A DNA stretch of 18,908 nt from IMG/VR virus record IMGVR_UViG_2713897055_000006. One strand, 5' to 3'. This stretch comes from a virus (taxonomy: Duplodnaviria > Heunggongvirae > Uroviricota > Caudoviricetes). Positions within the stretch are counted from its first letter, which is position 1, and every line of letters begins with the position of its first letter. The position numbers are program-made. Below are positions 6,001 to 9,000 of the stretch, in pieces.

Positions 6001-9000
6001 CAGTTGTTCAGGCTGGCTCACGTATTATAACTTATTCCCGAACTACCTTGAAACCGAGTCTTTCCAAGTATTCAATGAATGCCTCAACAGATAACACTAC
6101 ATGATCATCAGGAATTAACGCTGTGTAGGTAATACCCCCATTCTCAACGCGCACAGCATAGAGGCCATCTTCACTAAAAATTTCACGTAATTCTTCGATT
6201 TTCATCAACAGAATCCTTCCAGATAAATAGCACTCCCCCTGTTCGGGGTCCATCCCTCTTCTCCCTGCGCGCTACTTAAGTATTTTTGATTCTATTCTGG
6301 CACCGTCCAAAACTTCAAACACGTTGAAAATAAAAACAAAAAACCCGCCGAAGCGGGTATACTCAAACAATCTGGAAAATATTTCTTGGATTTGTAATAG
6401 GTCTGTTGATGGAGAACAACTCACGAATTAAATCTTGGCTCAAGCCAGTTTTCATAAGAATTCTTAGCCAGGTTGCATCATCCAGCATTTCAATCGCCTC
6501 GGCCAGCATGCCGGGTTCTTCAGGGCGCAAAAGTTCATCACCAGGTTCAACTCTCGTATACCCTCTGGAATTAAGATGCATATAGCCAGTTCTTGCCTGT
6601 TCCTGGGTCAATAAGCCTAATGCGCTGGCTCGATAAATACACATTTTAAGGCTGATTTTCCATCTAAGTTTAAATTCAACCAGAGCATTCCAGTCGAATT
6701 GCTTACCTCGTATTCGTGGAAATTCTTTAATGAAAGATAACCTGGGAACTAATAAGGCGCTCGAAAAGTGATCGGCTTGTGATTCCGTAAGTTTATCACC
6801 TGTCGTTATGCCCTCATGCATTACTAAATGCCCTAATTCATGACCTAAATCAGAGCGAAATCTACATATGCTTTTTTTTAACATTGTTCCTGATGATAAC
6901 AGGCCTGTTATTGTGAACAGTAAAAGCATCAACACGATCATCGACTCCCGTAACATGCGCAACGATTACCCCTAAACTCTCCGCCAATTTAACCATTGAT
7001 GATATAGGGCCAAGACCTAAATTCCAGGCACGGCGACAATCTTCTGCCACTCGCTCAATATCATTCGGAGTAAGTAATTCAGCCCCTGGGTGCTCCGGTA
7101 TGTTAACGTCAGGAAATTCGATTTCACCTTCAACAGCAGAAATTATAATATTAAGAATCTCAGCCCTGGCCAATACACTATTAGTCAGCGTTTGAGTCCT
7201 GGACTTCTTACTCCGAAAATGGCAGACATCACTTTCCAGAGCGTATTTTCGTTCAGTAAAAAGAAAACTGGACTTAATCATAAGCGCTGAAGATATTAAC
7301 TCAAGACATTGCTCCGATGGCCTGCACCCCTTCTCCAGTTTGCTAACGAATTGCTTTGTCTTGCCAATTTTTTTCGGCTAACTCTTCACAAGAAAGCCCA
7401 ACAGCCATTCTCGCTAGTTTGAGCTTATCACCCCGATACTCAGTGAAGTTATTCACCTGATGTTCCATCACTGCTCACATCCAAATCTTTATCCTTCGTA
7501 CGCCGACGAAGAGGCACCTTATTAATCTCCGCTTCGTCAGGGAGTGTGTTATAATCAAGAGGCATAAGCGGCATCGATGCTGTAGATTGATGAGAAACTA
7601 TACTAATCTGAGCACCATAAGTATTAAATCCAACAAGAGCTACCTCCCAACGAGGCAGTGTGGACTCTAATTCACCATCGCCCTCTTCGGATAAAAAAAG
7701 GCTCAGCTATGACTCGCCATGTAATATCTTGCTCAGCCTCAACATCACCAAACAATGAGAGCTGCTCATACTCTACTTTATTTCGACGCAGACGATGTTT
7801 CTTTTTGGGGTTATTAATGCAATCTTTGGTAAATTGTAGCGGAACTTTATTTAAAGCAACTACATAGTCCAACCCCTTGGAAATCATCTCAAGGCCAGGA
7901 ATTGCATCTTCATTTTGAATAAGATGATTTCTGACCCAATCATAAGCCCTTACACCTTCAGACCAGTTGCTGTCTAATGCGTGCTTATGATAGTACAGCT
8001 GCTCAAGTACGTTAGCGATCTCCGCCAACAAGTGGCGAACATAGTTTTCTGCAAGATAAGGTTGAAATTCCCAACAAGGAGCTAACTGATTTTCATTCAT
8101 TTCAAGTTTCGCTTTTTTTAGAATTCGTAAACCACATATTTTCGCATTTTTCTATTTTTGTCAACCAGACTAATGCAAAAACCCGCCGAAGCGGGTTAAG
8201 TGCGGGTGCGTTGAGGATGCCTGGCACATCAGAGGTGGCGGGAGATTACTCCCCCGCCGGGTCTCTTACTCCTCAGGTTCGTAAGCTGTGAAGACAGCGA
8301 CCTCCGTCTGGCCGGTTCGGATTCGTACCTCGCAGAGGTCTTTCCTCGTTACCAGTGCCGTCACAATGACGGTTAAACAGATGACGATCAGGGCGATTAG
8401 CATCGCCTTTTGCTGCTTCATAGCCTGCTTCTCCTTGCCTTTCGGCACGTAAGAGGCTAACCTACGTGTGTAGAGCATAGATATGGCCTCAGATTAATGT
8501 TAAGCGTCTTGCCGGACGCGTAATGTTAACTGGGGCTTTTCTCTATCTGCCTTTTGGTGTTCATGCCTGAGACAGATAGCCTCAAGCACCCGCTGCAATT
8601 CTACTTAACTCTCCTTTTCCCGCAAACCGTTTTTATCCCCAGCGGCAAATCGAATACACCACCAGCGCCACCGCCATCGCAATTCCTACCGTTGTTAATG
8701 CTTCAGGCCAGGTCATCGTAAAATATCCTCCACGCTTATCAGTCCGTTCCGCTCCAGATAACTCATCGCCTTATCCGGTAATTTGCAGTCTGGCTTCGCT
8801 TTCCTCAGTTGCCAGGTTAACTGCTTTACCAGCATGGTTAACTCATCGACCAGACGCTGATATCCCACTGGTTTGTATTCATGCAATTTACCGGCTGGCT
8901 CTGCTGCCAGCGATACCAGTGCGATTTCCAGAACAGCAATATCCATCTTTTATATGTGCGGATGATGTCATGGTCGATTGTGCCCGGTATGCACAGTCTC

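Follow-up and report, generated by a model that had tools for sequence, protein, structure and literature searches.

The 18,908-nt IMG/VR virus record IMGVR_UViG_2713897055_000006 (Caudoviricetes), referred to below as the window, is a lambdoid prophage whose genes are read on the minus strand, and its positions 1479-15303 display 99.1% identity to a prophage of Escherichia coli 042. In the nin region, with hokD on one side and the DUF968-RusA-Q genes on the other, lies a block of two overlapping genes, rmrT and rmrA, enclosed by two terminator hairpins. This block is very probably a toxin-antitoxin cassette of the RosmerTA type, serving anti-phage defence and carried as a moron by an E. coli prophage that converts its host to Shiga toxin 2 (Stx2) production. 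The cassette comprises the following features:

7449-8100, minus strand: rmrT, putative toxin gene, 216 aa when intact (E. coli 042 protein WP_001004956.1); in the window reduced to a 142-aa open reading frame (ORF) at 7672-8100
6363-7468, minus strand: rmrA, putative antitoxin gene, 367 aa when intact (E. coli 042 protein WP_000401168.1); present here as three ORFs
8175-8197, minus strand: hokD terminator hairpin, stem 8180-8197 followed by a T run, right-hand repeat copy (-15.3 kcal/mol, z -4.5)
6337-6358, minus strand: cassette terminator hairpin, stem 6343-6358 followed by a T run, left-hand repeat copy (-10.9 kcal/mol)
8136-8164, minus strand: candidate sigma-70 promoter, -35 TTGACA at 8159-8164, 17-nt spacer, -10 AAATAT at 8136-8141
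8127-8133, minus strand: GGTTTAC box just past the -10, candidate operator half-site or +1 region

The rmrT product, annotated as a hypothetical protein in E. coli 042 where it is intact, matches the PADLOC model RmrT PDLC03929 (E 4.6e-25, positions 5-195 of 198) as well as PHROG 5786, and is therefore a member of a catalogued RmrT family. An earlier sequence-only reading of the window had presented the 142-aa ORF as a complete gene without recognisable family; it corresponds to the N-terminal 135 residues of the 216-aa protein, the extra A at 7693 having created the shorter frame at a frameshift in 7693-7699, and by itself it still matches the PADLOC RmrT model at 3.9e-20. A word-indexed search yielded 21 close RmrT clusters, all from Enterobacterales where a source name was given, and a profile search of 1.8 billion cluster representatives yielded 69 relatives, with Vibrio and Pseudovibrio among the named members. 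All of the full-length members that were aligned (62/62) match PDLC03929. No relative of this toxin family was found in Pfam, in NCBIfam or among the PDB sequences, which were searched with the family profile.

The second gene, rmrA, overlaps rmrT by 20 nt on the same strand. Its domain and model tests were run on the intact allele of E. coli 042 (NC_017626.1, cassette genes at 1411823-1413557; 99.8% identical), where it is annotated as a helix-turn-helix (HTH) domain protein. The intact RmrA is composed of an XRE-type HTH (residues 13-62, of which HTH_3 covers residues 16-62; Pfam E-value 5e-7), an M78 ImmA/IrrE peptidase domain (Peptidase_M78, residues 176-281; 6.5e-11) with a HELGH motif, and a C-terminal region, so that the N-terminal XRE HTH and the M78 peptidase with its HExxH signature are both found in a single putative antitoxin. 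It matches the PADLOC model RmrA PDLC03943 (E 6e-105, positions 2-342 of 370) and is 29% identical over 301 aa (E 2e-35) to the verified RmrA of E. coli OLC-716, the HELGH motifs of the two proteins being aligned; the match to NCBIfam antitox_spr1629 (E 1.5e-45) lies below the curated cut-off. The HTH-ImmA peptidase gene that had been described here accordingly has the expected domains, but its division into three ORFs of one 367-aa gene by frameshifts had been missed. With both partners matching PADLOC RosmerTA models over nearly their full length, the earlier suggestion of phage-borne defence cargo has gained support.

The linkage of the two genes is kept across taxa, and in otherwise unrelated surroundings, as a close or overlapping two-gene operon on one strand. 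The order rmrT followed by a gene for an M78 peptidase (342-376 aa), overlapping or at most 70 nt apart, was found at eight further loci (L004-L011), and an HTH match was recorded in the partner peptidase of all of them except L006. Hosts of the pair include a Xenorhabdus lambdoid prophage, V. parahaemolyticus, V. fluvialis and three metagenome contigs; one additional contig was cut off and uninformative for the linkage. The Xenorhabdus prophage again has the rmrT pair ahead of Q. At the V. fluvialis locus (L011) a 199-aa toxin gene is separated by a 5-bp gap from a gene for a 361-aa antitoxin, next to a resolvase; this toxin is 27% identical to the RmrT of the window (E 1e-17).

The limits of the cassette are given by an exact 20-nt direct repeat, AAAAACCCGCCGAAGCGGGT, located at 6339-6358 and 8177-8196 and found nowhere else in the window; two matches of this kind were obtained in 0 of 200 shuffles. 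The near-identical flanking sequences noticed earlier are thus an exact repeat, and each copy forms, on the minus strand, a GC hairpin closed by a UUCG loop, with a T run behind it; a terminator scan called both as minus-strand intrinsic terminators. The right-hand copy, located 69 nt past the hokD stop codon and forming the upstream boundary of the cassette, is indeed the terminator of hokD as had been proposed, and is also the sole copy in a relative lacking the block (L002, see below). The left-hand copy starts 5 nt past the rmrA stop codon. The AT-rich character ascribed to the region between hok and the Q-proximal genes was borne out, the G+C content between the repeats being 41.5%, compared with 48.7% in the rest of the window, and the lowest among all 1.8-kb windows; the low G+C content extends leftwards of the block to approximately position 5990. 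The 13-nt hairpin core, CCGCCGAAGCGGG, was also found upstream of two distant rmrT genes (L008, 2886-2905; L009, 852-871), about 100 nt away and in the opposite orientation relative to rmrT. The context of these two hairpin cores is a P22-like metagenomic phage. Their opposite orientation rules out a terminator hairpin that travels with rmrT as a cassette-specific end, and indicates that the UUCG-loop terminator is a common, widely reused type of hairpin.

The cassette is optional. A synthetic empty-site query, in which the left flank was joined to hokD through one copy of the repeat, matched five genomes as a single piece at approximately 97% identity. In E. coli 025542-1 (L002) a single aligned piece (97.4% identity) runs from the left flank through one terminator to the hokD side, and this single terminator is the right-hand, hokD copy; the alignment with a relative lacking the block, as the sequence-only reading had called for, therefore defines the insertion or deletion as exactly the cassette plus one repeat copy. 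The block was present in 237 of the 5426 complete genomes, the flanks being matched in 4513 of them. In E. coli RM8082 (L003) the same site after the hokD terminator is occupied by a Phd/Doc pair (2733-3585), bracketed by two copies of the hairpin core (2733-2745 and 3573-3585). The identical bracketed place of this second pair makes the position after the hokD terminator a small cargo-exchange site with the terminator as its shared boundary, and suggests that lambdoid prophages have here a hotspot for cargo delimited by terminators. Variable presence between genes that are adjacent in relatives, a terminator of its own and a deviating base composition were all found, and the block is a real piece of cargo, a moron; this had been its first interpretation, which now rests on the empty-site relative, the distribution over 237/5426 genomes, the terminator, the G+C content and a -35 box conserved among diverged loci.

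This -35 box belongs to the candidate promoter in front of rmrT. The promoter initially assigned to the block on account of its consensus -35 has a perfect TTGACA at 8159-8164, but its -10 hexamer fits only 3/6 of the consensus, giving an overall score of 9/12. In seven diverged loci TTGAC precedes the ATG of rmrT by 61-82 nt without any change of sequence, followed after 16-18 nt by a -10-like hexamer, and the rmrT products behind it at the other loci (L004, L005, L007, L008, L010 and L011) are about 22-53% identical to that of the window. It is this conservation, not a consensus -10, that supports a dedicated cassette promoter. In four of the seven loci, (G)GTTTAC is found 31-33 nt downstream of TTGAC: in the window, in L005 from Vibrio parahaemolyticus, in the metagenomic L008 and, as AGTTTAC, in L011 from V. 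fluvialis; several loci carry a second GTTGAC upstream of rmrT. The pattern suggests that the TTGAC and GTTTAC boxes are candidate operator sites for the HTH of RmrA. A search for an inverted-repeat operator upstream of rmrT found solely the palindrome of an EcoRI site.

The structure of RmrT was predicted with AlphaFold2 from an alignment of 62 sequences, resulting in a model with a predicted local distance difference test (pLDDT) of 86 and a predicted template modelling score (pTM) of 0.76, in which two long helices are followed by a mixed sheet. Structure prediction, proposed earlier for the 142-aa protein, gave this confident model for the toxin; a Foldseek search with it returned no significant match in the PDB. 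The model weakly resembles the restriction-endonuclease fold, a similarity to be taken as a lead and not as an assignment. Just two residues of the 62-sequence alignment, D43 and E110, are conserved at the 90% level, and the positions on strands 2 and 3 (around D78 and Q89-K92) are variable. A canonical PD-(D/E)xK nuclease was rejected, since the catalytic D...(D/E)xK residues on these two strands vary.

The gene order in the E. coli 042 prophage is replication genes, nin region, hokD, the two cassette genes, a small ORF, DUF968, RusA, Q, a DNA methyltransferase and tRNAs. The neighbouring features in the window are:

8266-8421, minus strand: hokD, part of the hok/sok locus adjacent to the cassette
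reaching 8478, minus strand: mok-like ORF, part of hok/sok
8416-8591, minus strand: sok RNA (117 bits)
189-458, minus strand: stx2B (stx2 genes 99.5% identical to those of Stx2a-converting phages)
within 470-1498, minus strand: stx2A, with a Pfam RIP domain (same 99.5% identity of the stx2 genes)
1521-1772, minus strand: three tRNA genes, Arg-tct, Arg-tcg and one with a CAT anticodon (Ile according to the E. coli 042 annotation)
6032-6253, minus strand: 73-aa ORF in the low-GC stretch left of the cassette

The presence of stx2A and stx2B (189-1498) identifies the host element as an Stx2-converting prophage. Positions 1-6300 of the window have a best complete-genome match that is just 94.6% identical, and the combination of stx2 with the RosmerTA cassette looks uncommon. 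The tRNA trio is situated between the methyltransferase/Q region and stx2A, and tRNAs at that place are the usual arrangement of Stx phages. A complete hok/sok type I toxin-antitoxin locus (8266-8591, minus strand) lies directly upstream of the cassette, so that two killer modules are neighbours. The 73-aa ORF has no Pfam family and belongs to the flank, as it occurs in the empty-site relative too; at its place the annotation of E. coli 042 shows solely a 75-nt pseudogene fragment.

Compared with E. coli 042, which served as the reference for frameshifts and to which the block is 99.8% identical, the cassette of the window shows one substitution and three single-base insertions, all of the latter in A/T runs:

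7693-7699, minus strand: A7 where all relatives have A6; the rmrT frame shifts by +1 beyond residue 135
7368-7374, minus strand: T7 on the plus strand where relatives have T6; the rmrA frame shifts by +1 within the HTH
6872-6879, minus strand: T8 on the plus strand where relatives have T7; the rmrA frame shifts by +1 just ahead of the HExxH motif

As written, the copy in the window encodes no intact cassette protein, and these +1 frameshifts were the reason why its gene content had been misread. The extra base was found in 0 of the 229 records with the stretch around 7693, in 0 of 224 for 7368 and in 0 of 233 for 6872; among the complete E. coli genomes carrying these stretches (223-232), none had any of the three. 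Similar differences from E. coli 042 are found outside the cassette: T8 instead of T7 at 3896 leaves the Q antiterminator gene as two ORFs, 3446-3964 and 3888-4268, an inserted TT at 8948-8949 breaks up a gene for a 114-aa protein (8713-9059), and a ydaT-like gene is frameshifted by T6 instead of T5 at 14961. These further insertions are either homopolymer sequencing errors or the mark of a decaying or mutator-derived prophage.

Gene identity, linkage, boundaries and optional presence of the cassette were computed; its expression, neutralisation and role in abortive infection are modelled on published relatives. RosmerTA was described as a toxin of unknown function with a zinc-peptidase antitoxin that protects against phages, and deletion of rmrA failed (Millman et al., 10.1101/2022.05.11.491447). 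RmrA is an ImmA-protease antitoxin, one type being paired with many toxin families (PMC10440598). The rmrA and clpX genes are essential in Pectobacteriaceae strains carrying RosmerTA (10.64898/2025.12.09.693261), clpX is essential with RipAB in S. pneumoniae, whose toxin targets DnaN (PMC12795458), and clpP with a prophage Rosmer-like pair in E. coli E101 (10.1101/2020.05.25.114553). By analogy, a promoter belonging to the operon would drive its transcription in the lysogen, and the terminators on either side, that of hokD upstream and that of the cassette downstream, would shield it from the early transcription of the phage. RmrA would hold RmrT harmless, probably also repressing the operon through its HTH, and neutralisation would need ClpX or ClpP, as in other Rosmer systems. 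Infection by another phage could then upset the balance, and the freed toxin would halt the cell (abortive infection). That RmrT is a toxin neutralised by RmrA is putative and follows the analogy with Vmi480/Vmi470 (PMC4671572) and the failed deletion of rmrA (10.1101/2022.05.11.491447).

Several observations weigh against this interpretation of the block as a RosmerTA defence cassette. Neither rmrT nor rmrA has an intact reading frame in the window, so that this copy may be dead; the cassette was absent, at megablast sensitivity, from the 50,697 phage records of INPHARED; and a standard promoter scan made no call at the candidate promoter, since its -10 AAATAT is such a poor fit. The verified E. 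coli RmrT belongs to another family (PDLC03935 as opposed to PDLC03929) and shows no BLASTP similarity to that of the window, and the link to Vmi480 is made through the look-alike V. fluvialis locus, not through the Vmi480 sequence. The finding of unrelated toxins next to homologous RmrA proteins fits the published picture of one antitoxin type with varied toxins (PMC10440598).

Regarding the frameshifts, it is possible, though less probable than an artefact, that the source organism itself carries a dead cassette, in which three genuine frameshift mutations put first the toxin and later the antitoxin out of action. Toxin gene loss is a frequent outcome, and none of the insertions is shared by any of about 225-233 complete genomes. 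Of the homopolymer runs of at least 6 nt, all three within the two coding sequences are expanded, while in the remainder of the 13.8 kb that the window has in common with E. coli 042 this holds for 1 of 19 (post hoc Fisher test, p = 0.0026); real inactivation is therefore a serious possibility. On the other hand, the same kind of +1 homopolymer insertion, typical of sequencing errors, breaks Q (3896) and the ydaT-like gene (14961), and one substitution against three indels speaks against slow neutral decay, for which established mutation rates would predict more substitutions than indels. The pattern across Q, the ydaT-like gene and the cassette looks like homopolymer sequencing error, and errors of this type are the somewhat better explanation of the insertions. 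We consider two further, more novel readings improbable, namely that the PDLC03929 (Vmi480-like) toxin has a degenerate restriction-endonuclease-like fold with a non-canonical D43/E110 active site, and that real frameshifts act as switches. Such an active site would imply an action on nucleic acid of a kind not yet described for Rosmer toxins, and real frameshifts would make each long A/T run of both genes a slippage-prone off switch for the cassette in an Stx2 prophage.

The function of the pair may also be read differently. Its main functional rival, which we regard as unlikely, is a plain addiction module that stabilises the prophage by post-segregational killing and offers no defence against other phages. 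Another killer locus, hok/sok, adjoins the cassette, in another prophage this site is taken by an addiction module, Phd/Doc, the Vmi480/470 and E. coli E101 modules were described solely as toxin-antitoxin pairs (PMC4671572; 10.1101/2020.05.25.114553), and phage protection so far comes from RosmerTA systems with other toxin families; two such systems having the same type of antitoxin do nevertheless protect against phages (10.1101/2022.05.11.491447; PMC10440598), and addiction is compatible with a role in defence. Much less credible is an ImmA/IrrE-like prophage switch, in which the HTH-peptidase would act in induction or stress through repressor cleavage and the 216-aa protein would be its regulatory partner, not a toxin. 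M78 peptidases with HTH partners work in this way in ICEBs1 (ImmR/ImmA) and in cyclic oligonucleotide-based anti-phage signalling systems (CBASS; CapH/CapP), and RmrA has weaker PADLOC matches to capP (1.6e-14) and capH (1.5e-4); the full-length RmrA models, however, outscore capP by far, the cassette is optional, as shown by the empty site, and its place in the nin region is remote from the immunity region, the pair also occurs outside prophages, e.g. in V. fluvialis beside a resolvase and defence-like genes, and homologous first genes are lethal alone (PMC4671572). PD-lambda-2 (Vassallo et al. 2022), which comprises a HigB-like protein, an Xre-peptidase and a P4-like antitoxin, was rejected as an identification because it has three genes with a HigB-like first gene.

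Understood as a RosmerTA defence cassette, the object is of an already catalogued system type, and its novelty is low because standard defence-system annotators would label the locus already. What is modestly new is that cargo is exchanged between terminators at the site behind hokD, that promoter boxes are conserved, that the fold of the toxin weakly resembles that of restriction endonucleases and that frameshifts cluster in this copy. The window shows that a RosmerTA module for defence or addiction can lie immediately ahead of the Q-stx late region of a Shiga-toxin prophage, and such a module could affect superinfection, prophage stability and perhaps the outcome of induction. The locus also documents a small lambdoid cargo-exchange site, with different toxin-antitoxin cassettes between identical terminator hairpins, and the promoter boxes together with the lead on the toxin fold provide concrete handles on the Rosmer mechanism.

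Among known systems, the RosmerTA of E. coli OLC-716 (Millman et al. 2022) shares with the cassette its two-gene operon with the toxin first, its E. coli host and an antitoxin of about 370 aa with an N-terminal XRE HTH and an M78 zinc peptidase. It differs by its toxin, of family PDLC03935 and unrelated in sequence to the PDLC03929 toxin found here, while the system of the window lies in the nin region of a lambdoid prophage and has a defence role predicted by analogy. Vmi480/Vmi470 was described on a Vibrio mimicus genomic island (Luo et al. 2015), where the first gene kills E. coli and the second rescues it; Vmi480 (198 aa, without known domain) is followed after a 5-bp gap by Vmi470 (362 aa, HTH and zinc peptidase), with a promoter of its own and res2 nearby (PMC4671572). 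The V. fluvialis locus mirrors this arrangement (199/361 versus 198/362 aa, the 5-bp gap and a resolvase), and through this look-alike we infer that Vmi480 probably belongs to the same RmrT family as the toxin of the window. In contrast to the prophage cassette, Vmi480/470 resides on a mobilisable island, and toxicity and neutralisation were shown for it, not defence. RipAB (Spr1630/Spr1629) of Streptococcus pneumoniae and the prophage pair of E. coli E101 are likewise Rosmer-family systems with an XRE-ImmA antitoxin, and suggest by analogy a shared dependence on ClpX or ClpP for restraining the toxin (PMC12795458; 10.1101/2020.05.25.114553); RipAB is set apart by the action of RipA on the DnaN sliding clamp.

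More remote are ImmR/ImmA of ICEBs1, DdrO/IrrE of Deinococcus and CapH/CapP of CBASS, which also combine an M78 metallopeptidase with an XRE-type HTH as a stress-triggered switch. In these systems HTH and peptidase are separate proteins and the output is transcriptional derepression, whereas here the two are fused and paired with a putative toxin. As a piece of cargo, the block resembles the lambdoid phage morons, reportedly defined by Juhala and Hendrix, in being an extra transcription unit with its own terminator and a promoter, here a candidate, with a deviating composition and a position between genes that are adjacent in relatives. Unlike these morons, its terminator copies the upstream hokD terminator, and the Phd/Doc cargo at the same site is bracketed likewise.

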